A DNA stretch of 64,000 nucleotides from a virus. The notes beneath the pieces were generated by a model. It saw only the letters and a list, made by a program, of their open reading frames with translations. It did no database searches and had not been told where the DNA came from. Positions 3,100 through 28,995 of the stretch are shown in pieces (positions within the stretch are counted from its first letter, which is position 1; each line of letters opens with the position of its first letter). Location: the IMG/VR virus record IMGVR_UViG_3300027833_002114, positions 4,543 through 68,542 of that record; one strand, 5' to 3'. A program made the position numbers and the translations under genes.

Positions 3100-3900
3100 A
3101 TGGCTTTAGACATTAACGCAATCAGAGGTAGACTGAACAAACTACAAAACACACAACGTAAATCAGATTCATTATGGAAACCAACACCTGGTAAACACCA
3201 AGTGAGAATAGTTCCTTATCAATTCGAAAAGGATAATCCATTTATTGAACTGTACTTTCACTACAACATTAACAACAAAACTTATTTATCACCACAATCA
3301 TTTGGTAGACCAGACCCTATTGTAGAGTTTGCGGATAAACTAAAAAGAATGGGAGATAAAGAAGATTGGAAAGCAGCGAAAGCTATGGAGCCAAAACTTC
3401 GTACTTTTGTACCTGTTGTTGTGAGAGGTGAAGAAGGTGAAGGAGTTCGTTTTTGGGGATTCGGTAAAACAGTATATCAAGAAATTCTTGGATACATTGC
3501 TGACCCAGATTACGGAGATATCACAGACCCAACTAGTGGTAGAGATTTAACAATCGAGTACAAATCAGCAGAAGAAGCTGGAACTACTTATCCAACTACT
3601 ACTATTAGAGTTAAACCAAATGCATCTGCAGTAACTGAAGATGAAGCGAAAGTAACTCAATTCTTGGAATCACAAACTGAAATTACAGATTTATATTCTG
3701 AATTATCTTATGATGAATTAAAATCAGTATTAGAAGGATGGTTAAATCCAAGTGGTGAGGGTGAGAAGGAAACTGTATCTCAAAGTACTTTATCTCAAAG
3801 TACTCCATCTCAACCAACACAAACTGCACCAACTACAACTGAATCAGCAAAGAAAACTGATGATGTAGCTGCGGCATTTGATGACTTATTTAACAACTAA
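3100..3900 (+). CDS. Single-stranded DNA-binding protein, T4 gp32-like
   Basis: WKP..G...VRIVP, FWGFGKTVYQEI, DP..GRDL, acidic FDDLF tail; adjacent to recA. Confidence 0.8.
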   Translation: MALDINAIRGRLNKLQNTQRKSDSLWKPTPGKHQVRIVPYQFEKDNPFIELYFHYNINNKTYLSPQSFGRPDPIVEFADKLKRMGDKEDWKAAKAMEPKLRTFVPVVVRGEEGEGVRFWGFGKTVYQEILGYIADPDYGDITDPTSGRDLTIEYKSAEEAGTTYPTTTIRVKPNASAVTEDEAKVTQFLESQTEITDLYSELSYDELKSVLEGWLNPSGEGEKETVSQSTLSQSTPSQPTQTAPTTTESAKKTDDVAAAFDDLFNN

Positions 3901-12173: not shown

Positions 12174-12201
12174 TAATTAATTAATAATAGGAGAAATTAA
12201 A

Positions 12202-12465
12202 ATGGTAGAAGTAAAGAAATTTTATGCAGAATGGTGTGGACCTTGTAAGGTTCTAACACCTTTAATGGAAAACGTTAAAACTAAATTTTCAGATGTTAAC
12301 TTTGAAAATGTGGATATTGATTCACAATTCGAAATAGCTCAGAAGTATCATGTACGTTCTGTACCAACAGTAATTATTGAAAAAGATGGTGTTGAAGTAC
12401 AAAGAATGGTAGGAGTTCAATCAGAATTAGCATATACAAACGCTTTAACTGAAAATTTATCGTAA
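12202..12465 (+). CDS. trxA: Thioredoxin
   Basis: WCGPC, SVPT; AGGAG at 12189-12193. Confidence 0.9.
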   Translation: MVEVKKFYAEWCGPCKVLTPLMENVKTKFSDVNFENVDIDSQFEIAQKYHVRSVPTVIIEKDGVEVQRMVGVQSELAYTNALTENLS

Positions 12466-12469
12466 AATA

Positions 12470-12510
12470 TTTGGATTTCTCATTTATTTTTCGTATATTT
12501 ACATAGTAAA
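12470..12510 (+). promoter_or_regulatory. Early-type promoter, TATATTTAC variant
   Basis: 12476-12511 is identical over 36 bp to 326-361. Confidence 0.8.
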
Positions 12511-12527
12511 TAATAAAAACATAATAT

Positions 12528-12764
12528 ATGGCAGGAATTAAATTTGTACATCACGAAGAAGAAGTAGTAAAATTAAAAGGAACACCTAAAGTTCCTTTTA
12601 GTAAAAGTAAAAAGTTAAGTAGTATGGATGGTGGTAATACGTTATACTATATTGATACGGAGGTTGCGTTTAGAATGAAACTAGAGAATTTTGTAGATTT
12701 CACACAAAAACATCCACAAAACAGTAGCTATGCTGTAATTACCATTCCAATCGAAAGAGTTTAA
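12528..12764 (+). CDS. Hypothetical protein, paralog of the C-terminus of 405..899
   Basis: FTQKHPQNSSYAVIT vs FSQTHPLNQNFCLIT. Confidence 0.65.
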   Translation: MAGIKFVHHEEEVVKLKGTPKVPFSKSKKLSSMDGGNTLYYIDTEVAFRMKLENFVDFTQKHPQNSSYAVITIPIERV

Positions 12765-12781
12765 AAATAAAATAAAAAGTT

Positions 12782-12982
12782 ATGTCAAAAACCTTATGGT
12801 TTTTTAGTAATAGGTTACGAGGAGAATCTCACCCTAGGTCAAAATTAACAACAGAACAAGTAATACAAATTAGAGACCTTTACTCCAAGGGGTTTTCTAC
12901 AAATGTCATTGCTCGTAACTATAAGGTATCTACTTGGAATGTAGAAGAAATAGTAAAAAGAAAAACTTGGACACACATTTAA
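12782..12982 (+). CDS. Stand-alone HTH protein of the type found at the C-terminus of HNH homing endonucleases
   Basis: RGESHPRSKLTTEQVIQIR...IARNYKVS...IVKRKTWTHI. Confidence 0.7.
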   Translation: MSKTLWFFSNRLRGESHPRSKLTTEQVIQIRDLYSKGFSTNVIARNYKVSTWNVEEIVKRKTWTHI

Positions 12983-12996
12983 AATTTAAAAGAATT

Positions 12997-13650
12997 ATGA
13001 ATAAATACAATGAAAAACAACTCGAAGAGAATTATAATAAGTTTATCGAGGCACTTAAGAAATCTTTCGAAGGAGATAGATTAGAGAAATTACTACATAT
13101 GTACTCAATGGATGAATTAGGACCAAACCTAATGTTATCACCAGCGAGTGGAAATGTTAATTATCACAATGCATATGAAGGTGGTTATATTGACCATGTT
13201 ATGAATGTAGCTAGAAATTCACTCAGAATGATGAAACTCTACAAAGAAGCAGGTGGTATCATTGATTTCACACAAGATGAATTATTATTTGCAGCATTCC
13301 ATCACGATTTAGGAAAACTAGGAAGTAAAGGAAAAGTTCATTATGTAACAAATCCTTCTGATTGGCACGTAAAGAATCAAGGTAAGATATATGTTAGTAA
13401 TTCAGACCTATCATATCTAACACATACTGATAGAACATTCTTCTTATTACAAGAATATGGAATTAAATACAATGAAAACGAATATTTTGGAATCAAACTT
13501 ACTGATGGTATGTATGATGAAGATAACGTAAAATATTTCAAAGTATTTGACCCAAAAAACTACTTAAAATCAAATATACAATTTATACTTCATTGGGCTG
13601 ACCATATGAGTACTTGTATAGAAAGAGATACACAAAACGCTCCGTTTTAA
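12997..13650 (+). CDS. HD-domain phosphohydrolase (YhaM-like HD domain)
   Basis: PAS...YHNAYEGGYIDH, HHDLGK, HWAD; ATG 12997. Confidence 0.85.
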   Translation: MNKYNEKQLEENYNKFIEALKKSFEGDRLEKLLHMYSMDELGPNLMLSPASGNVNYHNAYEGGYIDHVMNVARNSLRMMKLYKEAGGIIDFTQDELLFAAFHHDLGKLGSKGKVHYVTNPSDWHVKNQGKIYVSNSDLSYLTHTDRTFFLLQEYGIKYNENEYFGIKLTDGMYDEDNVKYFKVFDPKNYLKSNIQFILHWADHMSTCIERDTQNAPF

Positions 13651-13651
13651 T

Positions 13652-15091
13652 ATGTGTGGAATCATCGGAGGAAATAACTTTAACTCATCTTCTATAAAAG
13701 ATGGGTTAGACAAGATACTACATAGAGGTAGAGATAATTCAACTATTGAACAAGTTGGAGATTTCTACTTTGCTCATAATAGATTATCAATACAAGATTT
13801 ATCAGAATTTGCAAATCAACCACTTTGGAATGAAGATAAAACAGTTTGTATAGTTTATAATGGTGAACTATGGGGAAGTAAACTTACCGATAAACTTAAG
13901 AGTAAAATAACAATACCATTCAGAACAACTTCTGATACTGAAATTATATTAAACTCTTACTTAGAGTTCGGTGTAGATTCTTTCAAAGATTTAGATGGTA
14001 TGTTTTCTTTTTGTATTATTGATACACGAAGTAAAACTGCATATTTAGTTAGAGATTATATTGGTGAACTTCCTTTTTGGTATTCAATTGATAAATTAAC
14101 TAATAAGTTAGCATTCTGTTCAGAGAAAAAAGGATTACCTCTATCAGATATTTACATGACGAGTGTAAAGACAGTTTATCCGGGTACATATGTTGAATAC
14201 AACTATGAAACACTATATCATAGTGTTAAAACTTACTATGAACTACCTAATGAAATAATAGAACACGATAGAGATACTATTATTAAGAATATAAGAAGTT
14301 TATTAGGAGAAGCCGTTCAAGCAAAAATGATTTCGGATGTTCCTATTTGTACACTTCTAAGTGGGGGAATTGATTCTGTAATAACAACATATCTTTTATC
14401 TAAGTTATATCCTAAATTAGAAGCATTTGTAGTAACAACAGAGGGTGGTAGTGATATAAAGTTTGCAAGAATAGCAGCAAAAGAATTTGGTATCAAATTA
14501 CATGAAATTCATATGACAAATGATGAAATCATGAATTCAATTGATACTACGTTATATGTAACTGAATTAACAAAATGGCAGAATATAGGTAGTGCACTTG
14601 CAACTATCAAACTAGGTGAAGAGATAAAGAAACATGGATTTAAGGTAGTGTTTTCTGGTGATTTATCTGATGAGATTTGGGGTAGTTATGGTCACATTCA
14701 AGCATTTCATTATACACCTGAAACTTATGATATAGCAAGAAGAAAATTAATAAAGGATGTACATAAAGGAAACTTTCCATCACAAAATCAATCTATGATG
14801 TGGGGTGGTACTGTTGAAATTAGAACTCCTTACTCTTGGAGACCATTTGTAGAGTACTCTTTAAACATTCCTCCATTGTACCAAAATGAAAAGGGACATA
14901 TGAAACCATTGTTAAGAGAAGCATTTAAAGGAGAAATATCAGATGAGTTATTGTGGAGAAAGAAAGTTTGGTTTGCACAAGGAGCAGGAACATCAGATGG
15001 TATAGAAAAAATAAAAGATACATTAAAAGACAGATTGAAAAATCAGTTTCAATATAAAGATGATTTAAATATAAAGAAGTTTTGGGATTAA
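13652..15091 (+). CDS. asnB: Asparagine synthetase B-like glutamine amidotransferase
   Basis: N-terminal MCGI, HRG, HNRLSI, NGE, SDTE, LSGGIDS, SGDLSDE. Confidence 0.88.
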   Translation: MCGIIGGNNFNSSSIKDGLDKILHRGRDNSTIEQVGDFYFAHNRLSIQDLSEFANQPLWNEDKTVCIVYNGELWGSKLTDKLKSKITIPFRTTSDTEIILNSYLEFGVDSFKDLDGMFSFCIIDTRSKTAYLVRDYIGELPFWYSIDKLTNKLAFCSEKKGLPLSDIYMTSVKTVYPGTYVEYNYETLYHSVKTYYELPNEIIEHDRDTIIKNIRSLLGEAVQAKMISDVPICTLLSGGIDSVITTYLLSKLYPKLEAFVVTTEGGSDIKFARIAAKEFGIKLHEIHMTNDEIMNSIDTTLYVTELTKWQNIGSALATIKLGEEIKKHGFKVVFSGDLSDEIWGSYGHIQAFHYTPETYDIARRKLIKDVHKGNFPSQNQSMMWGGTVEIRTPYSWRPFVEYSLNIPPLYQNEKGHMKPLLREAFKGEISDELLWRKKVWFAQGAGTSDGIEKIKDTLKDRLKNQFQYKDDLNIKKFWD

Positions 15092-15606
15092 ATGTAGTTC
15101 ATATAAAAGAAGAAGGTGAAGAGATGGATAAGGTCATTGAAGATACAATGGCTATTATTGATATGTATCCTGATATATTTCCTCATATGTACAAACAAGG
15201 ATTCAAACTTGTTAAAAGAATCAAACGAGGTAATTTAGTTTTACAAGATGGTGTAATGATTACATTTACACAATATACACATGGTGGTAAACTATCTCGA
15301 AATGCAACAACGATAAAGAAAACAAATGATTTTATTATTCATCAGATAGCATCAGACCAAACCCAAAAGGGTTCAACTAAAAAGGTATTAGATGAATTTG
15401 TAGAATATTGTAAATCAAAAAAAGCTGGTAATATATTATTAACTGTTCGAGCTTTCAACGAAAGGGCTCGTAAATTCTATGAAAGATATGGATTCAAGTA
15501 CGATTCAGATATACAATGGAATTCAAAAGAAACAGGTATAATACCAGGTGTAATTTATAGGTTACAACTAGAAAAAATAAAAAGTGAAAAGTTTTTTCAG
15601 TTTTAG
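15082..15606 (+). CDS. GNAT-family acyltransferase
   Basis: IHQIASD...KG, LTVRAFNERARKFYERYGF. Confidence 0.85.
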   Translation: MGLNVVHIKEEGEEMDKVIEDTMAIIDMYPDIFPHMYKQGFKLVKRIKRGNLVLQDGVMITFTQYTHGGKLSRNATTIKKTNDFIIHQIASDQTQKGSTKKVLDEFVEYCKSKKAGNILLTVRAFNERARKFYERYGFKYDSDIQWNSKETGIIPGVIYRLQLEKIKSEKFFQF

Positions 15607-15674
15607 CTTGTATAATTAAAAATAATTTCGTATATTTGTATAACAAATTCATTATAAGTCATGAAATGGGTTTG
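15607..15674 (+). promoter_or_regulatory. Bacteroidota sigmaA-type promoter followed by a 5' hairpin
   Basis: CTTG...TTTCGTATATTTGTATAA; CAAATTCATT (15644-15653) / AATGGGTTTG (15665-15674). Confidence 0.75.
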
Positions 15675-15700
15675 AATAATTTTTAAAAAAAAGAAATATT

Positions 15701-15844
15701 ATGTCAAAGATTAAAACCAAATGGGTAAAAATACCTGTTGAAACAACTTCATCTTATTGGATGAACAACGTAGAAGATACTCAGTCAGATGTGTATTCGG
15801 AAGCGTATGCAAAAGCTTGGGAAAAATATTTTTGCTCAAGATAA
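15701..15844 (+). CDS. Small hypothetical protein (47 aa), absent from the ORF track
   Basis: MSKIKTKWVKIPVETTSSYWMNN...KAWEKYFCSR; first ORF after the promoter, A-rich leader. Confidence 0.6.
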   Translation: MSKIKTKWVKIPVETTSSYWMNNVEDTQSDVYSEAYAKAWEKYFCSR

Positions 15845-15851
15845 TTAAACA

Positions 15852-15940
15852 AACGCTGTGGGATTGGATACCTTACTCTAAATGGAAAGCGTTGAAATAG
15901 AAAAACATCCAAACCCTCACTATAAAAATGAAGTGAGGTT
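15852..15940 (+). ncRNA. Candidate structured cis-regulatory RNA (pseudoknot plus hairpin)
   Basis: AACGCT/AGCGTT (15852-57/15888-93), TTGGAT/ATCCAA (15864-69/15907-12), CCTCACT/AGTGAGG (15915-21/15932-38). Confidence 0.4.
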
Positions 15941-15967
15941 ATAACAAATATTAAATAAAAGAATATT

Positions 15968-17461
15968 ATGCATTACACAAAAAAGCAAGCTATATCATTA
16001 GCAAATTCCGCTTCCATTAAGAATAAAAATGGTAAAAATTGGGAAACAATCGTAGAAACTACATTTAAAAAAAATGAAATTCTACCAGATATAAAGGATT
16101 TAAATAAATCCTTGTTTAAGACAAAAACTTATTGGTTTTATAGTGGCGGTAATCGTTTAAGAACCAAACTTATTGACCAGTGGTTACCAAAATTCAATCA
16201 TATTATTGAAGATAAAAATTCAATAGGAGACGCTCAAATTGATGAATTTATAATAGCAACTGATTCTTTAGCAATTGATTCTTCAAAAAAAGATTCACAA
16301 TTTGGAGATAATTACAAATATATTGCTCTAATACGAGAAACACCTGATAAGAGACAAACCGAAAGATTAGATAGTATCAAACAAAATTATCCTACTAATT
16401 TCGAATATTATATTGGAGAAAGAGGACTTGAAGAATATATGGATTCTCTTACGAATCCAGTTGAAAAAAAACAATTACCAGTTGGAAAAGTCGAGTGGAC
16501 TGGCATTGATAAGTTACTTGATAATGAAGTCAATAGAGATTTAGATGATGTTCATGTTTATGAGTTAATGGATTCTTTATTAGCTGAAATGAGAAATGGA
16601 AGTGTGAGAGGATTGGTAAGACCTTTGATTGGTATTAAGGCAAATGGAAAAGATTATTTAGTCGATGCTCATCATTTAAAAAAGGCGATTATCTTAATAA
16701 ATAAATTTACGCAGTGGAACATAACCGAAGTACCTGTTTATTACTTAACTCATTTAGAAGATTGTACTGAAGAAGAGCTTACAATGTTGATGAGTGTAAT
16801 TAATGTACTAGTAAAAAAATGGAATCCATTCAATTATGTTGGGTTATGGGAAAAAACTTATGATAAATTAAATGAAGAGGATAGAAAATTTCCATATACT
16901 AAATTGAGAGAAGAAATGGAAAGATTAAATCCATCAGACCCTGCAAAATCACCAATTCTTCATGCATTTTGTATTTCTGATAGAGCAGAGGAAAAAGATT
17001 GGGGAAATAATACTAAGAAAGTTACTTTTGGCAAATTAATGTTTACAGAAGAGGATTACACTAACAAATACAAACCAATTGTTGATTCCATAATAAAACT
17101 TAAAGAAAGAATAACTAAGACACGAGGTGTAATTGGTAAAGACTATATCAATAAAGATACAAAAGAAAAAGAGAAGTCACCAACAAACGTCAGCTCTGTT
17201 TTGAGAGCATTTGCTACTGAACTTTCTGTTCAAGGAACTGAGATATCAGATAAAGAAGTTTATTATCAAATATTACAAGAATTATCAAATGGATATTGGG
17301 ATTCAAAAAATGGGGTATTGCCAATTTGGACAGATGAACAATCATATAACATAAAAAATTGGAGAAGTATTAGTAATTTTCCAAGAAGAGCGAATGAAAT
17401 GAAATTTCTTGTAAGAGATGAAATAATTCCTACACTAGAAGAAGATTTAACTTCAGAATAG
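15968..17461 (+). CDS. PD-(D/E)XK nuclease-like N-terminus fused to a ParB/Srx-like domain
   Basis: GKNWE...IDQW...IIEDK; VNRDLD..HV..L..S...PLI...YLVDAHHL. Confidence 0.55.
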   Translation: MHYTKKQAISLANSASIKNKNGKNWETIVETTFKKNEILPDIKDLNKSLFKTKTYWFYSGGNRLRTKLIDQWLPKFNHIIEDKNSIGDAQIDEFIIATDSLAIDSSKKDSQFGDNYKYIALIRETPDKRQTERLDSIKQNYPTNFEYYIGERGLEEYMDSLTNPVEKKQLPVGKVEWTGIDKLLDNEVNRDLDDVHVYELMDSLLAEMRNGSVRGLVRPLIGIKANGKDYLVDAHHLKKAIILINKFTQWNITEVPVYYLTHLEDCTEEELTMLMSVINVLVKKWNPFNYVGLWEKTYDKLNEEDRKFPYTKLREEMERLNPSDPAKSPILHAFCISDRAEEKDWGNNTKKVTFGKLMFTEEDYTNKYKPIVDSIIKLKERITKTRGVIGKDYINKDTKEKEKSPTNVSSVLRAFATELSVQGTEISDKEVYYQILQELSNGYWDSKNGVLPIWTDEQSYNIKNWRSISNFPRRANEMKFLVRDEIIPTLEEDLTSE

Positions 17462-17472
17462 TACAAAATTAA

Positions 17473-18699
17473 ATGATAGAAGATATACTAAATAAATACA
17501 AAAAGGGTACTTACGAAGGTGAGTACCCAACTGTATCTGAAGAAGATTTTACTTTACTCAAGAAAAACTTTGATAAAGATAAAGTAAAAGAAGCATTTGC
17601 AGAATTATTCATGGAGTATGAAATACCCTATGCAGAAATTAGTGAAAAAAATGCATATGATGATTTCTTATCACTTAAGGGTTTCCGGTGGAGCCAGTAT
17701 CTAAAGGAAGGACAATGGTTTCCACGAAAAGCAGCGGAATCTAAGTATCCACTAACATACGATGGAAAACAACAATACTTTTCTCGTATCAATACAGGTA
17801 ACAGAGCATCTAATTACTTTCAACAACACAACAGATGGAGTGTAGATGGTTCAGTTTCACCAGGTCCAAAAAGAACTTGGGAAACAAAAGCATTTATGGT
17901 ATCATTAATGGGTGCAGCTTATTCTTTAAAATTACCACAAGTTGGTAAAAAAGAATTAAGAACAATGATTGGATTGAGAAAATACATATGTGCTCAGTTC
18001 AAACCAAATGTAGCGAAGATGTTCTATGATATGAACAATGCTAAAACTGTACTTGATTTCTCAATGGGATGGGGTGATAGATTAGCAGGTGCATTTTCAA
18101 GTGAAACAGTTGAACATTATGTAGGGTTAGACCCTCGTAAAGAAAATCATCCGTTCTATGAACAACAAAGAGATTTTTATACTAAACATACATCTTTCTT
18201 TGAAACACCTACTAAAACAAACTTCTATGAATCACCAGCAGAAGATTTTGATTACTCTGAATATAACGAGTACTTTGATGTAGTATTTACATCACCTCCA
18301 TATTTCTCAGTAGAAAGATATTCACATGATGATACTCAGAGTTGGGTAAGATATAAAAACATAAACGATTGGAACAAGAACTTTTTACATACTACTTTAG
18401 GTAAGATTATACCAACAGTAAAGAAAGGTGGTATCATTGCAGTGAACATAGCGGATGTATATGCTAGTTCCAAAGGTGATAAGGGATGGTTAGAGATTTG
18501 TAATCCAATGATTGATTATCTTACATCACAAGGATTAACTTACAAAGGTTGTATTGGTATGGAAATGGCAAAGAGACCTAATAGTGGTGGAGCAGGAACT
18601 GCTAAAGATGATGGACAGTATTCAGAAGAAAGTTTAAAATTAGCAGAAGAAACAAAAAATCAAACTTTTTGTGAACCTGTTTGGATATGTCAAAAATAA
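17473..18699 (+). CDS. DNA amino-methyltransferase-like protein (N4-C/N6-A fold)
   Basis: Motif I LDFSMGWG precedes motif IV FTSPPY; C-terminal EPVW. Confidence 0.82.
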   Translation: MIEDILNKYKKGTYEGEYPTVSEEDFTLLKKNFDKDKVKEAFAELFMEYEIPYAEISEKNAYDDFLSLKGFRWSQYLKEGQWFPRKAAESKYPLTYDGKQQYFSRINTGNRASNYFQQHNRWSVDGSVSPGPKRTWETKAFMVSLMGAAYSLKLPQVGKKELRTMIGLRKYICAQFKPNVAKMFYDMNNAKTVLDFSMGWGDRLAGAFSSETVEHYVGLDPRKENHPFYEQQRDFYTKHTSFFETPTKTNFYESPAEDFDYSEYNEYFDVVFTSPPYFSVERYSHDDTQSWVRYKNINDWNKNFLHTTLGKIIPTVKKGGIIAVNIADVYASSKGDKGWLEICNPMIDYLTSQGLTYKGCIGMEMAKRPNSGGAGTAKDDGQYSEESLKLAEETKNQTFCEPVWICQK

Positions 18700-18716
18700 T
18701 TCGTATATTTGTATAA
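18680..18716 (+). promoter_or_regulatory. Bacteroidota sigmaA-type promoter for polB
   Basis: TTTGGAT...TTCGTATATTTGTATAA overlapping the end of the MTase gene. Confidence 0.8.
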
Positions 18717-18735
18717 ATAAATAAAACAGAACAGA

Positions 18736-21252
18736 TTGTATCAAAACATTTATTACCAACGAGAAAGAAATTTAATCCATCTTTGGGATGACCAAAGAGG
18801 ATATTCTGCATTTCCATACACACGATATGCTTATGAACCTGCACAAAGAGGTGAGTATAAATCTATTTATGGAGATAGTTTATCCAAAATTTATAAGTTT
18901 AAGAAAGATGACCCAAATTTATTTGAGTCAGATGTACCTGAAACTACACGAGCATTAGTAGATATGTATTCAGATAAAGATGATATATCAGACGGTCATG
19001 TTATCTTAACATATGATATTGAGTGTGAAATGATAAGTGGATTACCAGACCCACTAGAAGCTAAGAATGAATTAACTTCAATTGCACTTCACGATTCTGC
19101 AACAGACCAGTATTGGGTATTGGTTGTTGATAAGGAAGGTGGTATGAAAGAAAAGACTACTGATAAGTGTATCGTATTCCCATTCCAAGATGAACGAGAT
19201 ATGTTAGCTAAGTATTTGGAGTTATATGAGATGATTAATCCCTCAATCGTTACCGGTTGGAATATTGATTTCTTTGATACACCAATGTTATATAATCGTA
19301 TAAAACGATTAATGGGAGAAAAACAAGCAAATAGATTATCACCAATCGGACAATGTTTCTGGTCACCTTATCGTAAAAGATACTTTATGGCAGGTGTATC
19401 TTATTTAGATTACATTACACTTTATAAGAATTACAATTATGGTGAACTACCAAACTATCGATTGGATAGTGTTGCACAAAAAGAATTGGGTAGAGGAAAG
19501 ATTGAGTATGATGGAAACTTGGACCAATTATTTAGAGATGATATTGAAAAGTTTATCGAATATAACTTAGTAGATGTTGAGTTAGTAGTTGAGTTTGATA
19601 AAAAACTTCAGTTCATCGATTTGTGTAGAGGTATCTGTCATGCGGGACACGTTCCATATGAAGATTTCGTTTACTCATCAAAGTATCTTGAAGGAGCAAT
19701 GTTAACTTATCTTAGAAGAAAGGGATTGGTTGCACCAAACAAACCAGCAGATAGGCAAGAACGAATGCAAGAAATTCGTGATAATAATCAAGAGAAATTT
19801 ATTGGAGCATATGTAAAAGCTCCAATTGTTGGAAAATATGATTGGATATATGATTTAGATTTAACATCTCTATATCCTTCTATTATTATGACCCTCAACA
19901 TTTCACCCGAATCAAAGATTGGTAAGATTCAAGATTGGGATGCAAATAAATTTGTTAAAGGGGAAGTTGATACTTATTATATCGGAGATAATACCATATC
20001 TAAAGAAAATTTAAGAAAGTATTTAGATGATTCCAAATTCTCAGTTGCATCGAATGGTGTACTTTACCGAACCGATACCGTTGGTTGTATACCTGGTATT
20101 CTTGACTTGTGGTTTCAAAAACGAGTTGAGTATAAAAATGAAATGAAAAAATATGGGAAAGCAGGAGATGATGAAAAATATGCCTTCTATCACAAACGTC
20201 AGTTGGTTCAGAAAATTTTACTTAACTCTTTATATGGTGTGCTTGGGCTTCCTGCCTTTCGGTTCTATGATGTTGATAATGCTACCGCTGTTACCACGAC
20301 AGGACAGACAGTTATTAAATCAACTGCGGATATGGCTAACATCAAGTACAACAAGGAGCTTAATACTCCTGATTTGGATTCTAACATATACATCGATACT
20401 GATTCTGTATTCTTCTCAGCAGTTCCTTTAATGGATAAACGATTTCCTAATTGGAAAGATGAAGAACAAGATACAATTGCTGGTTATGTAAATGATATTG
20501 CAGAAGAGATGCAAGATTACCTTAATGATTTCTATGATATACTTTCAACAAAGGTTTTAAATGTTGATAAAGATAAACACAGATTAGAGATTAAGAAGGA
20601 GTATGTTGCAAAAGCAGGATTGTGGGTAGCAAAGAAACGATATGCACAATGGATTATATCAGATAATGGTGTACCAGTAGATAAGTTAGATGTAAAAGGA
20701 TTAGATGTAAAACGTTCATCATTCCCAAAAGCATTCCAAGAATGTATGGGTACAGTTCTTATTGATATTCTAAAAGGTAAAACCGAAGAAGAGATTTCAG
20801 ATTATGTTTTAGATTTCAAAAAGAATATGGTAAATAGACCTACATCCGAGATTGCAAAGAACTCAGCAGTAAAGAATCTTAAAAAATATATGCCGAAAGG
20901 TAAAAGAGAACGATTCTCTATGATGAAAGGAACACCTGCTCATGTTAAAGCAGCAATTCTATATAATGATTGTTTAAAACATTTCAATGCTCCTTTCAAT
21001 TATGAACCATTAAAAAATGGTGATAAAGTTAAGTGGGTATATCTTAAAGATAATCCATTGGGAATTGATGGTTTAGCATTCACAGGTTATAAAGACCCAC
21101 CAGAGATTGAGAAGTTTTTAGCTACTTACATTGACCACAACAAAATCTTCGAAAGAGAACTAGGACATAAACTACAAGTTTTCTTTGATGCAGTTGGTTG
21201 GGGTGAAGTAATAAGTGAACAAAGAACTGCTGAAAAATTCTTCAGTTTTTAG
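18736..21252 (+). CDS. polB: Family B DNA polymerase (T4 gp43-like)
   Basis: Exo YDIE, GWNIDFFD, YNLVD; pol DLTSLYPSII, KILLNSLYG, YIDTDS, KKRY. Confidence 0.97.
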   Translation: MYQNIYYQRERNLIHLWDDQRGYSAFPYTRYAYEPAQRGEYKSIYGDSLSKIYKFKKDDPNLFESDVPETTRALVDMYSDKDDISDGHVILTYDIECEMISGLPDPLEAKNELTSIALHDSATDQYWVLVVDKEGGMKEKTTDKCIVFPFQDERDMLAKYLELYEMINPSIVTGWNIDFFDTPMLYNRIKRLMGEKQANRLSPIGQCFWSPYRKRYFMAGVSYLDYITLYKNYNYGELPNYRLDSVAQKELGRGKIEYDGNLDQLFRDDIEKFIEYNLVDVELVVEFDKKLQFIDLCRGICHAGHVPYEDFVYSSKYLEGAMLTYLRRKGLVAPNKPADRQERMQEIRDNNQEKFIGAYVKAPIVGKYDWIYDLDLTSLYPSIIMTLNISPESKIGKIQDWDANKFVKGEVDTYYIGDNTISKENLRKYLDDSKFSVASNGVLYRTDTVGCIPGILDLWFQKRVEYKNEMKKYGKAGDDEKYAFYHKRQLVQKILLNSLYGVLGLPAFRFYDVDNATAVTTTGQTVIKSTADMANIKYNKELNTPDLDSNIYIDTDSVFFSAVPLMDKRFPNWKDEEQDTIAGYVNDIAEEMQDYLNDFYDILSTKVLNVDKDKHRLEIKKEYVAKAGLWVAKKRYAQWIISDNGVPVDKLDVKGLDVKRSSFPKAFQECMGTVLIDILKGKTEEEISDYVLDFKKNMVNRPTSEIAKNSAVKNLKKYMPKGKRERFSMMKGTPAHVKAAILYNDCLKHFNAPFNYEPLKNGDKVKWVYLKDNPLGIDGLAFTGYKDPPEIEKFLATYIDHNKIFERELGHKLQVFFDAVGWGEVISEQRTAEKFFSF

Positions 21253-21253
21253 T

Positions 21254-21298
21254 AACATGACAATTTGTCATGTTTAAGTAAAATGGTATAATAAATGA
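21254..21298 (+). promoter_or_regulatory. Palindromic operator plus sigma54-like -24/-12 element upstream of the groEL unit
   Basis: AACATGACAA-T-TTGTCATGTT (21254-21274); TGGTAT-N5-ATGA (21284-21298). Confidence 0.55.
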
Positions 21299-21323
21299 AC
21301 TATAATATAATAAATTAAAATAA

Positions 21324-23329
<2,006 letters not shown>

Positions 23330-23345
23330 AATAAATACGAAAAAG

Positions 23346-23382
23346 TTTGGTAGTATCAAATAAATTTCGTATATTTGTACAA
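23346..23382 (+). promoter_or_regulatory. Bacteroidota sigmaA-type promoter
   Basis: TTTGGTAG...TTTCGTATATTTGTAC. Confidence 0.8.
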
Positions 23383-23407
23383 ATAATAAATTATAATTAA
23401 GTAAACA

Positions 23408-24121
23408 ATGGAAAAACAATCATTAAGCAGGTTCGTATCAAAGTACAACCTATCAGGTCTAGTAGAATCTGTAAAGTGGGAATCAAAAGATGGTTCTCTA
23501 ACTACTTCTTTCATCTCTGATGATAAATCAGTTTTAGGAAGTGTAAGTATGAAAGAGTTTGATAGTTCAGATGCATCATTTGGTGTATATGATACAACCA
23601 AACTAACAAAGATGTTATCGGTTCTCGGTAACGATGTAGATTTCTCAATGAATGATATTGATGGGAAACCAGTATCTTTGAAATTCAAAGATAAATCAAC
23701 ATCTGTAAATTATATGTTAGCTGATTTATCAGTTATCCCTAATGTACCAGATTTGAAACAATTACCAGATTTTAATGTAGAAATTAAATTGGATTCAAGT
23801 TTCATCTCTACGTTCATTAAAGCAAAGGGTGCATTGCAAGATGAGAACAATTTTACATTTACTTGTAAAGAAGGTAATGGTCAGATTATCTTAGGATATT
23901 CTAATATTAACACAAACAGAATTAATATTGATGTTGATTGTGTATGTGAAGGTGATGTAGACCCAATTTCATTTTCTGCAACATACCTAAAAGAGATATT
24001 AGTTGCAAACAAAGAAGCAACTGATGCAACTTTAAAGATTTCTTCTCAAGGATTAGCCCACATTTCCTTTTCAATTGACAATTATGAATCAAATTACTTT
24101 CTTGTAGAAATTCAATCTTAA
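23408..24121 (+). CDS. Sliding clamp (gp45/PCNA-like)
   Basis: 237 aa; FGVYDTTKL..MLS, YMLAD, LKISSQGLAHISF, C-terminal YFLV; replication context. Confidence 0.75.
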   Translation: MEKQSLSRFVSKYNLSGLVESVKWESKDGSLTTSFISDDKSVLGSVSMKEFDSSDASFGVYDTTKLTKMLSVLGNDVDFSMNDIDGKPVSLKFKDKSTSVNYMLADLSVIPNVPDLKQLPDFNVEIKLDSSFISTFIKAKGALQDENNFTFTCKEGNGQIILGYSNINTNRINIDVDCVCEGDVDPISFSATYLKEILVANKEATDATLKISSQGLAHISFSIDNYESNYFLVEIQS

Positions 24122-25773
24122 TGAGCACTAAATATTTTTACGAACAAAGTAAATTTTCTGAGTTCAAATCTAAAAAAACTTACCATGAGTTACTTGATAT
24201 GACTGATGGTGAGTTTGAGGATTGGGCAAGGTTAATCCGTAAGGAGATTGTCGATGCGTGGGATATTGATGGGCAACCTCCTGTTAAAGGAAAAACAGAA
24301 GAACAAATTATCAGCCATTTTGGTAAATTGAAAAAAGATGAATGTAATTTCTTTATTAAAGATGATGAAGATAAAGAATCATTGGGGATTATAAAAAACT
24401 TTAATAAAAGTCAAAGTGTAGTAAATCAGTTTTTTCCAACAATGTTGAAAACTAGAATTTCTATTGGTGAATCAGCTGATGGCGGAACATCAATTTATGA
24501 TTATTTTGCAGAAGATAGTTTAGAAGGTGGTTTCATTAAAACAATGGCAAGAGCGGTTAAGAGAGATTCCATGTATGCATGGTGTCGTTCATTAACAACT
24601 GTTAAAGATGAGAATCCTTTTTGGAATGGACAAACACCATATAAGTTCGTAAAGGATGTATATGATGGTAAGATATTCAAAGGCAAGTGGGAAAACTATG
24701 ATATTGTACTTCACAGAACAACTGAAGCTTCTATTAGAAAATACGGACCTTTAAATGAAACTAAACAAACGTATGGAACAATCCTATTCTTAACTGGTAA
24801 ACAAGTAAGAAGATTAGTAAAAGAAGGATTTCTAAACAAACGTCAGATTTCAAATATTGGTGATATACCTAATTCAAAAACTTTAAAAAATGGTAAAGTT
24901 GTTAACTATGTTTACAATGTAAGGTGGTATGAAAAATCAGATGGTATTTTCCCTAAGATTATACAAGCATTTAGATTAGGTTTAGGACAACCTGCTGTAA
25001 ACTTTCCTGCATTAACTGCAAAATGGATTTACGAAAACTATACTAATCATATTGAACAAGAAGAACCATTACATATTTATGATTCATCGAGTGGTTGGGG
25101 TGGTAGAATTGCAGGAGCAATGAGTAGTAGAAAGAAAGTTCACTACGTTGGTACAGACCCTAATCCAGATAACTTTATTGATGATTTGGGTATTTCTCGA
25201 TATGAATACATGGCAAAGTTCTATAATGATAAAGTAGTTGATACTCATTCAGAAGCAATGAGTAACTTCTTTACAGTAGAAAAGCAAGGTAACACCTATG
25301 AGTTATTTCAAGATGGTTCAGAGTTAATTAAAAACAATCCTGAGTTCCAAAAGTATAAAGGTAAATTAGATATTTCATTTACTTCACCTCCTTACTTTAA
25401 TAGAGAACAATATTCACAAGATGAGAACCAATCGTTCAAAGCTTATGGTGAGTATGATGATTGGAGAGATAACTTTTTAAGACCTACTCTTACAACAATC
25501 TATGAATATCTTAAAAACGATAGGTATATCCTATGGAATATTGCTGATATCAAAATTGGTAAATCAATTTACTTTCCACTAGAACAAGATTCGATTGATA
25601 TTCTTCAATCACTTGGTGGTGAATATAAAGGTAAACTTAAGATGACAATGGCAGCAATGATTGGTGCAAATGTAAACAAACGAGAATCAATTGAAACAGG
25701 TATGAAAAACTTAGTACAAGTTGGAACTACTTGGTACAAATATGAACCTATATTCGTATTTCATAAAAAGTAA
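24121..25773 (+). CDS. Large DNA amino-methyltransferase-like protein, paralog A
   Basis: YDSSSGWGGR, YVGTDPN, FTSPPYFNRE.YS, WNIAD, EPIFVF. Confidence 0.82.
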   Translation: MSTKYFYEQSKFSEFKSKKTYHELLDMTDGEFEDWARLIRKEIVDAWDIDGQPPVKGKTEEQIISHFGKLKKDECNFFIKDDEDKESLGIIKNFNKSQSVVNQFFPTMLKTRISIGESADGGTSIYDYFAEDSLEGGFIKTMARAVKRDSMYAWCRSLTTVKDENPFWNGQTPYKFVKDVYDGKIFKGKWENYDIVLHRTTEASIRKYGPLNETKQTYGTILFLTGKQVRRLVKEGFLNKRQISNIGDIPNSKTLKNGKVVNYVYNVRWYEKSDGIFPKIIQAFRLGLGQPAVNFPALTAKWIYENYTNHIEQEEPLHIYDSSSGWGGRIAGAMSSRKKVHYVGTDPNPDNFIDDLGISRYEYMAKFYNDKVVDTHSEAMSNFFTVEKQGNTYELFQDGSELIKNNPEFQKYKGKLDISFTSPPYFNREQYSQDENQSFKAYGEYDDWRDNFLRPTLTTIYEYLKNDRYILWNIADIKIGKSIYFPLEQDSIDILQSLGGEYKGKLKMTMAAMIGANVNKRESIETGMKNLVQVGTTWYKYEPIFVFHKK

Positions 25774-25776
25774 TTA

Positions 25777-27405
25777 ATGCATTATTACCAACGAAATAAA
25801 TTTGTAGATTTTAAATCAAATATTCTTTTCCATGAATTACTTGATACTAGTGATTCCGAATTCGAAGATTGGGCAAAGACTTTGCGTAAAGAAGTTACTG
25901 AACAATGGGATGAGTTCGGAAATCCACCTGTTATCGGAAAAAATCATGATAAGATTATTACATCACTTGGTAAATTAAAATCAAATGATTGTGATTTTAT
26001 TGAAAAAGATTTAAGTGGTGATGATGAATCATTAGGTATCATTAAAAACTTTAACAAAGATGCATCTGTTGTAAATCAGTTCTTTCCTACAATGTTGAAA
26101 ACTAAAATATCAAGTGGAAAAACTGCTGAAGGTGGTTTATCTATTTATGATTATTTTGGTGACCCTACAATGGAAGAGCAGTTTATTAAGATAATGAAGA
26201 GAGCAGTACGAAGAGATTCTATGTATGTTTGGTCTCGCTCACTTGTTAATAAAAAAGATGAGAATCCTTTTTGGAATGGTCAGAGTGGATACGAATTTAT
26301 CAAAGATGTTAAAGATGGAAAAGTATTCACAGGTAAATGGGAAAACTACGATATCTATTTAACGAAATCAAAAGATAGTACATTTGATAACTACGGAACA
26401 TTTAATGATGAGTATGTTGGGTTTACAAACATATATCTAACATCAGATGAAGTAAATGAATTAGTAGATAATGATTACTTAAATTCAAGACAAGTTTCTA
26501 ACATAAATAAAATAGAAGAATCTTCAACATCTAAAGTGGGGAAGGTAACGAAATATTCTTATATGGTTAGATGGTATGATAAAACTGAAGGATTATTTCC
26601 TAATATGTTAAGAGTAATACGTTTAAGTTGTGGACAAGCAGCTGTAAACTTTCCTTCATTAACTGCAAAGTGGATTTATGAAAATTATACTAATCATATT
26701 GATTCAACTGAACCTATAACTGTTTATGATTCATCTAGTGGATGGGGTGGTAGAATTATAGGTGCAATGAGTTCTCGTAAGAAAATTCATTATGTTGGTA
26801 CAGACCCTAATCCTGATAACTTCTTAGATAATGAAGGAATTTCTCGTTATGAGTATGTAGCAGATTTTTACAACAAGAATTGTATAGATAATCATTCGGA
26901 TAAACTTACATCATTCTTTGATGTTGAAACACAATCTAATACATATGAACTCTTTCAAGATGGTTCAGAGTTAATTAAAAACAATCCTGAGTTTCAGAAG
27001 TATAAAGGTAAAGTTGATATATCATTTACATCACCACCATATTTTAATAGAGAACAATATTCACAAGATGAAAAGCAGTCTTTCAAAGCATATTCTGAGT
27101 ACGAAGATTGGAGAGATAATTTCTTAAAACCAACCTTAAAAACAATTTACGAATACTTAAATAAAGATAGATATATTTTGTGGAATATTGCAGATATTAA
27201 AATAGGTGAAAGTACTTACTATCCATTGGAACAAGATTCAATTGATATATTAAATCAACTTGGGTGTGAGTATAAAGGAAAGCTTAAAATGTTAATGACA
27301 CGAATGGTTGGATTAGACCCTTCCAAGAGTGGAATTAAAAACGCAGTAAAACATAATGGGAAATCATATAAATTTGAACCTATATTCGTATTCCATAAAA
27401 AATAA
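25777..27405 (+). CDS. Large DNA amino-methyltransferase-like protein, paralog B
   Basis: Same motifs as 24121..25773; tandem duplicate. Confidence 0.82.
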   Translation: MHYYQRNKFVDFKSNILFHELLDTSDSEFEDWAKTLRKEVTEQWDEFGNPPVIGKNHDKIITSLGKLKSNDCDFIEKDLSGDDESLGIIKNFNKDASVVNQFFPTMLKTKISSGKTAEGGLSIYDYFGDPTMEEQFIKIMKRAVRRDSMYVWSRSLVNKKDENPFWNGQSGYEFIKDVKDGKVFTGKWENYDIYLTKSKDSTFDNYGTFNDEYVGFTNIYLTSDEVNELVDNDYLNSRQVSNINKIEESSTSKVGKVTKYSYMVRWYDKTEGLFPNMLRVIRLSCGQAAVNFPSLTAKWIYENYTNHIDSTEPITVYDSSSGWGGRIIGAMSSRKKIHYVGTDPNPDNFLDNEGISRYEYVADFYNKNCIDNHSDKLTSFFDVETQSNTYELFQDGSELIKNNPEFQKYKGKVDISFTSPPYFNREQYSQDEKQSFKAYSEYEDWRDNFLKPTLKTIYEYLNKDRYILWNIADIKIGESTYYPLEQDSIDILNQLGCEYKGKLKMLMTRMVGLDPSKSGIKNAVKHNGKSYKFEPIFVFHKK

Positions 27406-27411
27406 CAAAAT

Positions 27412-27633
27412 ATGACTAAAGCAGAAATAGTACAGGAGTTACTAGATAAAGGACATATTACCGCTGAAAAAGCAGTAGTATTGTTAACTAATGAAACTTC
27501 GAGGGGTGGTATTACTTATATACCATATCAACCAAATCCATATTGGCAAACCGAACCCAATATTCCAAATCAACCTTGGTACACAACAACAAATACATTT
27601 GAAAATAATATAAATAAAAAAGAAGATGAGTAA
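27412..27633 (+). CDS. Hypothetical protein with a Pro/aromatic-rich tail
   Basis: ELLDKGHITAEKAVVLL; overlaps the groES start. Confidence 0.65.
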   Translation: MTKAEIVQELLDKGHITAEKAVVLLTNETSRGGITYIPYQPNPYWQTEPNIPNQPWYTTTNTFENNINKKEDE

Positions 27634-27928
27634 TTTTAAACCATTAGGTGATAGAATTTTGGTAAGACCTGATTCTAAAAACGAAGAAAAGAAATCAAAA
27701 GGAGGATTAATCCTTACTGATTCCATCTCAAGGGGAACTAAAGTTTATGGAGAAGTAGTATCAGTTGGTACTGGTCTTTTCTCACAAACTGGAACTAAAA
27801 TCCCAATAACAGTTAGTGTGGGTGATAAGGTATTATATACCAAACAAGAAGCTTCTAATACTATAAAAGTAGATGGTGAAGAACTTCTTATTTTTCACGA
27901 ACATGAACTTTTAGGTTTTATTCAATGA
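27626..27928 (+). CDS. groES: Co-chaperonin GroES
   Basis: FKPLGDRILV, KSKGGLIL, GEVVSVGTG, VSVGDKVLY. Confidence 0.93.
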   Translation: MSNFKPLGDRILVRPDSKNEEKKSKGGLILTDSISRGTKVYGEVVSVGTGLFSQTGTKIPITVSVGDKVLYTKQEASNTIKVDGEELLIFHEHELLGFIQ

Positions 27929-28995
27929 GAAACTCTCTAACATACGATGATATTCAGTTAGTACCTCAGTACTCTACTGTTCCCTCTCGTACTCAAATTG
28001 ACTTAAAAACACTTGTATCTCGTAGATATGGTATTTTAAATCCAATTGTAGCATCTCCGATGGATACAGTTTGTGGATTAGAAATGGCTTACAAGATATT
28101 TTTACTCGGTGGAGTGGGTTGTATCCACCGTTTCAATTCAATAGAAGAACAATCCAAAATAATCAAAGAACTATATCACAGAATTTATTCCGATGAATGG
28201 GGAAATCAATTTGAATCATGGGGAGTCATGATTGATAATTGGCATTCAGAAATTCCTCATGTTCCAATTATGGCATCCATTGGAGTAAGTGAAAGTGATA
28301 AAGATAGAGCAAAATCTTTAGTAGATAATGGTTGTAACATTATCGTTATTGATGTAGCTCATGGACACCACAAAAACGTTGAAACAATGTTGGGATGGTT
28401 GAAAAGTAACCTTGATGACAAAGTAGACATTATCGCTGGTAATATCGCAACCAAAGAAGCAGCTCAAGAATTAGAATCTTGGGGAGCAGATGGGTTGAGA
28501 GTCGGTATTGGTGGAGGTTCACTTTGTACAACAAGAGTTAAGACAGGATTCGGAGTACCGAATGTAAGTTGTTTAGAAGATATAGTATCTGTTGCGAAAA
28601 CACCCGTTATGGCTGATGGAGGTATTCGTTCAAGTGGTGATATATCAAAAGCTCTTGCAATTGGAGCGAGTTCTGTTATGTTGGGTTCTCTAATCGCTGG
28701 TACTGATGAAGCACCAGGTCAGATTGTTGAAACTCAAAAAGGTCTTTATAAGAGATATAGAGGTTCTGCATCGTTAGAAACGAAAGTAACACATGGTCAA
28801 AAGGCTAGAAATGTAGAAGGTGAATCTACAACCATTCCCTACAAGGGCGGAGTTAAGTTCATAGTGAATGGGTTAATTGATGGAGTAAAATCGGCACTCT
28901 CTTATGGAGGTGCTCAAACATTAGAAGATTTTAATCCACCTTATGTACAGGTTACAAATTCGGGTATTAATGAAGCAAAACCACATTTATTATAA
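27925..28995 (+). CDS. IMP dehydrogenase / GMP reductase family enzyme lacking CBS domains
   Basis: LTYDDIQLVP, SPMDTV, IDVAHGH, GIGGGSLCTTR, ADGGI, VMLGS, YRGSAS. Confidence 0.9.
   Translation: MRNSLTYDDIQLVPQYSTVPSRTQIDLKTLVSRRYGILNPIVASPMDTVCGLEMAYKIFLLGGVGCIHRFNSIEEQSKIIKELYHRIYSDEWGNQFESWGVMIDNWHSEIPHVPIMASIGVSESDKDRAKSLVDNGCNIIVIDVAHGHHKNVETMLGWLKSNLDDKVDIIAGNIATKEAAQELESWGADGLRVGIGGGSLCTTRVKTGFGVPNVSCLEDIVSVAKTPVMADGGIRSSGDISKALAIGASSVMLGSLIAGTDEAPGQIVETQKGLYKRYRGSASLETKVTHGQKARNVEGESTTIPYKGGVKFIVNGLIDGVKSALSYGGAQTLEDFNPPYVQVTNSGINEAKPHLL

Follow-up and report, generated by a model that had tools for sequence, protein, structure and literature searches.

Gene content of the locus

The genes considered here lie in a stretch of viral DNA of 64,000 nucleotides, hereafter the window, which corresponds to bases 4543-68542 of the 68.5-kb IMG/VR record IMGVR_UViG_3300027833_002114 (estimated to be 38% complete). 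They encode an AsnB-like amidotransferase, a GNAT acetyltransferase-fold protein and three methyltransferase (MTase)-like paralogs, MT1 to MT3, and are interleaved with the genes for the replicative polymerase and the sliding clamp. The window comes from a marine T4-like phage that has not been cultured and represents its replication region; the GC content is about 0.31, and every large open reading frame (ORF) is on the + strand. In its 5' part genes for a gp32-like single-stranded DNA-binding protein (SSB), UvsX, a DnaB-type helicase, ribonucleotide reductase (RNR) and thioredoxin are followed by those for an HD-domain protein, the AsnB-like protein, the GNAT protein and an orphan of 497 amino acids (aa). 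The order then continues with MT1, a T4-type family B DNA polymerase (PolB), GroEL, the clamp, MT2, MT3, GroES, an inosine monophosphate dehydrogenase/GMP-reductase-like protein and a TonB-dependent receptor, and later a gp44-type clamp loader (33623-34576; phrog_168, E 1e-82). A megablast search of this region against isolated phages returned no DNA-level match, and the polymerase itself shares 52.6% identity with its counterpart in Microcystis phage Mel-JY01 and about 30% with gp43 proteins of the cyanophage/KVP40 type.

PolB (18736..21252; 838 aa) is matched by phrog_262 (E 2.4e-184), PF00136 and PF03104. The AsnB-like protein (13652..15091; 479 aa; PF00733, E 5.4e-47; GATase_7, E 1.4e-26) combines an N-terminal Cys glutaminase domain (motifs MCGI, HRG.D and NGE) with a PP-loop synthetase domain (SGGIDS), and matches E. 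coli AsnB (1ct9) at E 9e-48. The gene for the GNAT protein (15082..15606) overlaps its stop by 10 nt, and encodes 174 aa from a TTG at 15082 or 160 aa from an ATG at 15124; the N-terminal extension is kept in homologs. The acetyl-CoA-binding motif A region of this protein is recognized by both Acetyltransf_10 (PF13673; score 26.8 versus a cut-off of 23.6) and Acetyltransf_1 (PF00583; 25.3 versus 20.7).

A polymerase-type C-terminal peptide on the AsnB-like and GNAT proteins

A sequence-only reading of the window had pointed to similar C-terminal peptides in three of these proteins, and the ORF translations reproduce them exactly: PolB ends in QRTAEKFFSF, the GNAT protein in KIKSEKFFQF and the AsnB-like protein in LNIKKFWD. 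The corresponding peptides are EKFFSF (21232..21249) in PolB, the polymerase-type EKFFQF (15586..15603) in the GNAT protein and KKFWD (15074..15088), with a K-F-[F/W] core, in the AsnB-like protein, all encoded on the + strand. In T4/RB69 gp43 the tail that binds the clamp corresponds to the KFFxF peptide of PolB. The whole 68.5-kb contig has 93 non-overlapping + strand ORFs of 40 aa or more, and KF[FW] occurs within the last eight residues of none but these three; the number of ORFs with KFF in this position expected by chance is 0.095. A match to EKFFSF at five or more of the six positions and at the exact C-terminus is expected 3.5e-4 times among the other 92 ORFs. In the complete 274-kb relative G001 (100% complete; 390 ORFs), KFF is found within the last eight residues of PolB and the AsnB-like protein only, with 0.38 occurrences expected. 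The tails of the GNAT protein and PolB are encoded by DNA that differs at synonymous positions; therefore, neither is a recent copy of the other.

To follow the tails among relatives we used two scans of IMG/VR, which yielded 92 locus identifiers representing 80 distinct contigs (12 contigs carry two identifiers); all conservation counts refer to these 80. Six-frame translation of these contigs gave 2495 complete ORFs of 60 aa or more, of which 161 have a C-terminal [KQ]F[FW] with no more than five residues after it; AsnB-like proteins (77), PolB (42) and GNAT proteins (27) account for 146 of the 161. Because of the close relationship between many of the contigs, distinct DNA tails are a better unit for counting. 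The K-F-[F/W] core is kept in 77/77 AsnB homologs. It lies beyond the region alignable to E. coli or human asparagine synthetase, and the one to five residues after it vary (D, G, DA, K, E, EYA, QYA, KNA, SING or SLND). In their 27 distinct DNA tails AAA alternates with AAG and TTT with TTC, leaving K-F-[F/W] unchanged amidst residues that vary on either side, as is typical of a short linear motif on which selection acts at the level of the protein. PolB ends in KFFxF in 40 of 44 complete best hits (18 distinct DNA tails), and that of Mel-JY01 ends in SKFFNFK. The remaining four hits (L071, L072, L073 and L080) are N-terminal pieces of split polymerases, whose C-terminal pieces end in VFFDFGED (L071) and AEQFFSFG (L073 and L080), the piece in L072 being cut off. 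The polymerase of these four loci is distributed over two or three ORFs.

The tail of the GNAT protein has a more restricted distribution, with [K/Q]FF plus up to three residues in 27 of 76 complete copies, so that conservation of the tail holds for the AsnB-like protein and PolB and only in part for the GNAT protein. A library of 1.84 billion proteins yielded more distant representatives of the GNAT subfamily: among those of 38-51% identity KQFFNVD, SNFFNF, EKFFD and LNKFI are found as C-termini, and in still more remote ones the chain finishes with the final strand of the fold. Tail-less homologs end about 11 residues earlier, at this strand, so that the tail lies outside the folded domain. 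For co-variation of the GNAT tail with that of PolB we obtained a single instance: L073 and L080 have Q for K in both the C-terminal piece of PolB (AEQFFSFG) and the GNAT protein (TEQFFKY). This amounts to one event, and the test is a weak one because the K-F-F core hardly varies.

Several other C-terminal peptides were encountered in the course of this survey. The GNAT protein of the clade comprising L109-L122 (P0126) has no KFF and instead a longer tail, ...NKKYNFIRNVFRLFRQI, another aromatic/hydrophobic C-terminal peptide. In L071 and L072 an ORF of 525 aa directly after the GNAT gene (10575-12152), with a weak match to GIY-YIG (E 0.0049), ends in NIKSEKFFQFN or NIKSEKFFRFN, nearly the GNAT tail of the window, and the GNAT protein at these loci ends in NEKFFSFD; a homing endonuclease may have inserted here, bringing along or duplicating the 3' end of a GNAT gene. 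In the distant phage L124, whose GNAT protein ends in LNKFI, the next ORF (1930-2682; 250 aa) ends in VNDFFE.

The sliding clamp and predicted docking of the GNAT tail

The clamp (23408..24121; 237 aa) is of the PCNA/gp45-like type. This assignment rests on its fold, as sequence models gave only sub-threshold matches (NF002222, E 2.8e-6 with 27 bits versus a cut-off of 207; phrog_947, E 4e-4), and searches of PDB returned nothing with the single sequence and reached only E of about 0.9 with a profile. Its AlphaFold2 model (mean pLDDT 70.4) shows two beta-alpha-beta domains joined by a low-confidence connector at residues 106-117, and Foldseek aligned it with PCNA chains at E 1.2e-13 (TM 0.76).

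Tethering of the GNAT protein to the clamp, as envisaged in the sequence-only reading, found support in complex prediction. Using the 160-aa form of the GNAT protein, our own alignments of 11 and 24 rows and the median of three runs, the clamp-GNAT pair obtained an ipSAE of 0.82 versus 0.00 for the best of three controls, with at least 97% of contacts agreeing between runs and a partner pLDDT of at least 84. The pairs with the lowest predicted error join GNAT residues F157, F158, Q159 and F160 with clamp residues 114-117, in the interdomain connector, and 216, 231, 233, 43, 36 and 40. This predicted contact surface is the site at which PCNA-type clamps receive the PCNA-interacting peptide (PIP) box. 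Invariant residues make up 26 of the 36 contact positions as against 102 of 237 overall (Fisher p 1.3e-4), an approximate figure from 11 related rows of clamps 50-99% identical. In silico, then, the GNAT tail contacts the clamp at its interdomain loop, a result that lends support to binding without proving it. The AsnB tail, which has the same core motif, would probably bind the clamp as well.

The AsnB-like protein appears unlike ordinary asparagine synthetases

An ordinary interpretation of these genes would make the AsnB-like protein an asparagine-producing auxiliary metabolic enzyme, the GNAT protein unrelated to it, the MTases orphan N6-methyladenine or N4-methylcytosine enzymes with an anti-restriction role, and the tails a product of chance, composition or translational coupling. 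In keeping with this, the AsnB-like protein passes the asparagine synthase model TIGR01536 (273.4 versus a cut-off of 267.1) and its glutaminase and PP-loop motifs are intact; moreover, an AT-rich genome favors K, F and N codons, and the AsnB stop overlaps the GNAT start. Nevertheless, the protein falls far below the cut-off of the AsnB model NF006949 (273.7 versus 499), and two segments common to the asparagine synthetases of E. coli and human, the two enzymes used for this comparison, are replaced in it: TT[I/V]RAS by QNIGSA, and D..R.[D/N][R/K] by N..S.NQ. We take these segments to serve aspartyl-AMP formation or the binding of the intermediate. The gene is also strictly tied to its neighbor, being present on 77 of the 80 contigs and each time directly upstream of the GNAT gene. 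With so few chance matches expected for the GNAT tail (3.5e-4), a K-F-[F/W] core retained in all 77 homologs through synonymous changes and amidst variable flanks, and a docking prediction that exceeds its controls, we regard the ordinary interpretation as very unlikely. The suggestion that this protein does not look like an ordinary asparagine synthetase is accordingly supported, given the replaced segments and its constant association with the GNAT and MTase-like genes in a replication cluster.

The relatives of this protein in isolated phages are found in several settings. The closest, gp124 of Streptomyces phage TurkishDelight (31% identity, E 5e-58), also lacks the two canonical segments (with QVEIGWA and NFPRVNK in their place); its gene has a C5-MTase gene on one side and a CmoA-like gene on the other, with two ParB-like genes adjacent, and this arrangement corresponds to the one reported by Yang et al. 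(PMC12783734). Another lies inside the QueC-TGT-QueE-FolE (7-deazaguanine) cluster of Achromobacter phage Motura. The homolog in cyanophage S-SCSM1 is located among glycosyltransferases, indicating that not every phage AsnB is directed at DNA. With its Cys glutaminase domain and PP-loop, the enzyme of the window should be able to turn a carboxylate into a primary amide.

The MTase-like paralogs

MT1 (17473..18699; 408 aa) has a class I S-adenosylmethionine (SAM)-dependent fold with the motif order I-II-III-IV (PF01555, 22.8 versus a cut-off of 26.7; PADLOC MTase_II, E 1.4e-7). MT2 (24121..25773; 550 aa) gives comparable matches (PF01555, 24.4 versus 26.7; phrog_498, E 1.5e-8; MTase_II, E 1.6e-8), and its tandem paralog MT3 (25777..27405; 542 aa) is matched by phrog_12517 (E 1.9e-11), phrog_498 (E 8.7e-9) and MTase_II (E 5.7e-10) and by no Pfam family at E<=0.01. 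Motif I (D.S.GWG.R) and motif IV (TSPPYF), which includes the SPPY signature, are invariant in all three. The PADLOC type II MTase models cover the motif IV region only (E 1e-7 to 6e-10), and PADLOC matched nothing else in these proteins. A model of MT1 (mean pLDDT 69.1) retrieved generic class I MTases only (E of about 1e-6), a comparison of MT2 with PDB gave nothing useful, and the N-terminal region of MT2, about 300 aa, has no assigned fold and matched only unnamed viral clusters in the ESM Atlas. Because of the sub-threshold Pfam scores and the generic structural matches, the case for DNA as the substrate of these proteins rests on weak similarity combined with gene context.

As regards this context, the AsnB-GNAT-MT1 and clamp-MT2 adjacencies are retained in relatives with as little as 58% PolB identity. 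In the far clade, where the order is thioredoxin-AsnB-GNAT-MT1-MT1'-clamp-MT2-PolB, as well as in L011 and L016, the clamp gene is followed by one of the MT2/MT3 type. Furthermore, certain sister phages encode canonical PF01555 adenine-MTase-like proteins, well above the threshold of that family and similar to CcrM-type adenine methylases, which end in EKVNQFFG (L076, E 1.7e-38; also L074) or LDKYKFFQ (L105, E 1.6e-44).

Each of the three paralogs also has an internal (S/N)FF peptide between motif I and the SPPY motif IV: HTSFFE in MT1 (18187..18204), MSNFFT in MT2 (25258..25275) and LTSFFD in MT3 (26905..26922). The sequence-only reading had located these correctly; however, what it counted as three peptides is one homologous loop, with F242 and F243 of MT1 invariant. 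As the FF residues occupy the same alignment columns, they are one inherited feature of the paralog family rather than three independent events. These loops could also bind the clamp, in the way that T4 DNA ligase binds gp45 through an internal LDFLF loop according to PMC6212786. Such a role would agree with the retention of the aromatic pair in 54/54 distinct motif II-IV segments (95 ORFs, 80 contigs), with the greater length of the loop in MT2 and MT3 and with its absence from the non-phage MTase-GNAT fusions P0225 and P0174. Yet the flanks in MT1 are conserved and the segment has a fixed length of 64 residues, as would be expected of a structural or cofactor-lid element, and the MT1 model shows a loop of nine residues (pLDDT about 70) between a helix (223-238) and a strand (248-252), with no long disordered insert. 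Given also that the three peptides represent one position and that the motif is devoid of both the K and the trailing xF aromatic of the tails, clamp binding by the loops seems to us rather unlikely.

Domain fusions and neighborhoods of the GNAT subfamily

The GNAT protein belongs to a small subfamily, with 192 representatives at E<=1e-3 among 1.84 billion proteins; their cluster members have no informative names, and a tblastn search of isolated phages found no match. In P0225 (full length), P0174 and P0207 (truncated) the GNAT domain is fused to the C-terminus of an MT2/MT3-type domain. In L126 the GNAT gene starts 3 nt after an MT2-like gene, with homologs of the HD protein and MT1 nearby, and in L051, from the metagenome scan, an MTase-GNAT fusion without an AsnB-like protein is encoded beside a ParB-DNA-methylase. 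A search of viral contigs for loci related to P0125, P0121 and P0225 returned none, and for P0132 one weak partial match. Other fusion partners of the subfamily include a DruA domain (P0146) and Asp/Asn-hydroxylase-like oxygenases (P0161 and P0203), and the domain is also C-terminal on proteins rich in basic KKKTRKKRGG-like repeats (P0177, P0184, P0220, P0239, P0246, P0247, P0251, P0256 and others).

These architectures bear on the possibility that the tails do bind the clamp, while the AsnB-like and GNAT proteins act on proteins at the fork (acetylation of replisome or host proteins being one option) or on RNA, or compete with the polymerase and so regulate replication or late transcription. 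The best named matches of the GNAT protein are protein N-acetyltransferases (RimI, TIGR01575, E 1.2e-8, below the cut-off), and in T4 such tails serve transcription factors in addition to replication enzymes, as described in PMC6212786. Against this are the fusions of the GNAT domain to MT2/MT3-type domains and the occurrence of the same tail on DNA methylases of sister phages. In addition, relatives of the AsnB-like protein reside in the base-modification clusters of other phages, and a role in regulation alone would not readily account for an amidotransferase. Accordingly, a function other than base modification appears improbable to us.

A proposed clamp-tethered modification module

On balance we lean towards the view that the KFF tails hook the AsnB-like and GNAT proteins onto the clamp, and that together with the three MTase paralogs they form a post-replicative nucleic-acid modification module, which would perform amidation and acylation. 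On a loaded clamp trimer PolB, the AsnB-like protein and, in this phage, the GNAT protein would compete for or share the three pockets via their KFF tails, a step for which there is in silico support in the case of the GNAT protein and motif conservation in that of the AsnB-like protein. The latter would be tethered in every clade, and the GNAT protein only in some. That DNA is what the cassette modifies we infer from the MTase-GNAT fusions, the AsnB-like relatives in base-modification clusters and the tailed DNA methylases.

A number of observations weigh against this proposal. The KKFWD peptide of the AsnB-like protein is the weakest match among the tails of the window and has no final aromatic residue, and the tail is absent from 49 of the 76 complete GNAT homologs (32 of the NIETVCI type, 14 of the FRLFR(QI) type and three others). 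The contigs are related, and their counts are hence not independent events; the overlap of the AsnB 3' end with the GNAT start could also constrain the last two AsnB codons, albeit not the K-F codons. As PIP-PCNA complexes are abundant among solved structures, the docking result may reflect likeness only, and its calibration, in which 58 of 80 solved complexes and two of 110 mismatched pairs attained the mark, is rough because we used our own shallow alignments. The AsnB-like protein passes TIGR01536, if narrowly (by 6 bits), and all its catalytic hallmarks are compatible with plain asparagine synthesis. MT1 and MT2 remain below the Pfam DNA-methylase threshold, with structural matches of a generic class I kind. 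Finally, there is no obvious carboxyl donor; CmoA, C5-MTase and TGT are absent from the complete G001. The clamp-tethered hypermodification system envisaged at the outset is thus supported in part: by its conserved polymerase-type tails, by the predicted docking of the GNAT protein, by the apparently unusual nature of the AsnB-like protein and by the precedent in phage DNA modification for pairing MTase-fold enzymes with AsnB-like amidation (PMC12783734). It is weakened by the patchiness of the GNAT tail, by the reduction of the MTase peptides to a single homologous loop and by the absence of the known carboxyl-donor route.

With regard to the chemistry, the known carboxymethylation route was rejected, since neither CmoA (TIGR00740) nor a C5-MTase (PF00145) was detected in any of five records (G000 and four related ones, including G001); the same TIGR00740 model does detect TurkishDelight gp125 at E 2.6e-25. 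A CmoA of the host could still contribute. The 7-deazaguanine route was likewise rejected: no TGT/DpdA was found in the phage group, including G001, and the only QueC-like signal is the PP-loop of the AsnB-like protein itself, with no separate QueC. For a hydroxymethyl-pyrimidine route, the ThyA-family gene of G001 (E 4.8e-97) was read as an ordinary thymidylate synthase. As for hints of aminocarboxypropyl transfer, a PNP_UDP_1 gene of G001, considered as a possible methylthioadenosine-handling enzyme, is a purine nucleoside phosphorylase by NCBIfam and not MTAP, the check for such hints found no SAM synthetase, and a literature search on aminocarboxypropyl DNA modification in bacteriophage found nothing relevant. 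The absence of CmoA, C5-MTase and TGT/QueC even from G001 implies that the cassette is not a copy of a described pathway, and the combination of an amino-MTase fold, a GNAT protein and a glutamine amidotransferase in a genome devoid of the CmoA, C5-MTase and deazaguanine genes points to a base chemistry outside such pathways.

What this chemistry might be can be outlined only tentatively. The MTase-like paralogs, which probably differ in sequence specificity as their N-terminal parts are divergent, would place a group on an exocyclic nitrogen of the base; the tethered amidotransferase would then convert a carboxyl of the modified base to a primary amide, using ATP (via the PP-loop) and glutamine (via the N-terminal Cys domain), and the GNAT protein would acylate an amino group of the same adduct or base. 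It is possible, if doubtful, that this constitutes a replisome-coupled pathway to an adduct not described so far, in which the SPPY MTase-fold enzyme adds a carboxyl-bearing (and perhaps also amino-bearing) group, the AsnB-like protein amidates it and the GNAT protein caps the amine. The added group could be a carboxymethyl from host carboxy-SAM (Cx-SAM) or the 3-amino-3-carboxypropyl of SAM, and the outcome would be an N-linked base that is neutral and bears an amide, formed within seconds of synthesis. TYW2/Tsr3, the amidation step of diphthamide synthesis and Mom are the analogies behind these proposed chemistries.

If the clamp-tethered module is real, phages would couple DNA-modifying enzymes to the sliding clamp by the same logic as DNMT1 on PCNA, which would explain how modification keeps pace with a fast replisome and how nascent DNA is protected from restriction. 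A KFF tail matching that of the polymerase would also offer a simple sequence rule for spotting replisome clients in uncultured phages. The phage group is very common in marine metagenomes: a search with the clamp sequence retrieved 2476 proteins at E<=0.001, with 87-99% identity among the matches listed (120 of 2476).

Comparison with known systems

The system as proposed combines features of two known kinds: the tails of clamp clients, and phage DNA hypermodification that enlists an AsnB homolog. With respect to the former, PMC6212786 describes clients of T4 gp45, including gp33 and the T4 DNA ligase with its internal loop, and a hydrophobic pocket on the outer face of the trimeric clamp. 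The window resembles the T4/RB69 gp43 arrangement in having a short hydrophobic or aromatic peptide common to the polymerase and other putative clients, in conjunction with a T4-type polymerase, a PCNA-like clamp and predicted contacts in the interdomain loop and pocket. It differs in that the motif is KFFxF and not LDFLF, and in that the putative clients are an amidotransferase, a GNAT protein and, in sister phages, DNA methylases. A literature search found no publication joining a sliding clamp, an acetyltransferase, a clamp-binding motif and a phage. In eukaryotes, DNMT1 and the GNAT-fold Eco1 are recruited to PCNA by PIP-type peptides and act right behind the fork; these are unrelated proteins, and the analogy is one of logic only.

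Among AsnB-assisted systems, that of Synechococcus phage S-B43 is reported by Yang et al. (PMC12783734) to comprise CmoA, which makes Cx-SAM, CmoX, which carboxymethylates cytosine at C5, and the asparagine-synthetase homolog CmoY, which ligates glycine, the products being 5-carboxymethylcytosine and its glycine amide. The same source describes the second-largest cluster of such ligases as having a glutaminase domain and predicts that it uses glutamine-derived ammonia. By that account the two systems share an ATP-dependent asparagine-synthetase homolog that amidates, or in the window would amidate, a handle set by an MTase-fold enzyme. The phage of the window differs in being devoid of CmoA and a C5-MTase, in having SPPY rather than SPPC MTases, in the GNAT protein as an obligatory partner and in the putative clamp tails. 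Unlike the AsnB-like protein of the window, TurkishDelight gp124 ends in ...HTRLYG, without a clamp-type tail. Motura is similar in that its AsnB-like amidotransferase lies within a DNA base-modification gene set (QueC-AsnB-TGT-QueE-FolE); however, the two proteins are only 25% identical, and the group of the window has neither TGT/DpdA nor a separate QueC. Mu Mom, described as a GNAT-fold DNA adenine carbamoylmethylase yielding an amide-bearing adduct (PMC13219725; bioRxiv 10.1101/2023.03.24.534169), is comparable to our protein as a member of the GNAT superfamily; Mom works alone, whereas our GNAT protein always occurs with the AsnB-like and MTase-like proteins.

Other features of the region

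The HD-domain phosphohydrolase-like protein (12997..13650; 217 aa) gives a below-cut-off match to PF01966 (E 0.0038), along with phrog_5889 (E 1.1e-16) and phrog_28876, annotated as metal-dependent phosphohydrolase (E 1.1e-8). Its gene lies upstream of that for the AsnB-like protein in the near clades and in L126 and was not detected in the far clade, and we consider it loosely associated with the cassette. The 497-aa protein encoded between the GNAT protein and MT1 (15968..17461) has no assigned family, with no match in Pfam (even at E<=1), PHROGs, NCBIfam or PADLOC; as full-length homologs are confined to L002 and L004 among the first 32 loci, its gene is a variable insert. At E<=1 Pfam likewise returned no family for proteins of 124 and 73 aa or for the N-terminal parts of the MTases, and only sub-threshold matches for proteins of 78 and 66 aa.

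The gp32-like SSB (window 3100-3900) ends in AAFDDLFNN and the RNR small subunit (9068-10063) in EDWGDLF, tails of a partner-binding type that differ from KFF. Mel-JY01 (L127), the closest isolated relative by PolB, gave no match to the AsnB-like protein or the GNAT protein, and encodes an S-adenosylmethionine synthase (11590-12792) near its clamp-loader genes. The GroEL-like (21644-23329) and GroES-like (27626-27928) proteins of the window are named from their translations alone, as is the TonB-dependent receptor, a full-length ORF of 904 aa (29037-31751). The gene at 27925-28995 is matched by models of IMP dehydrogenase and GMP reductase below their cut-offs. The replication genes are followed by a cluster for glycan or sugar-nucleotide functions (37447-42527), with genes for a nucleotide-sugar epimerase and two glycosyltransferases.

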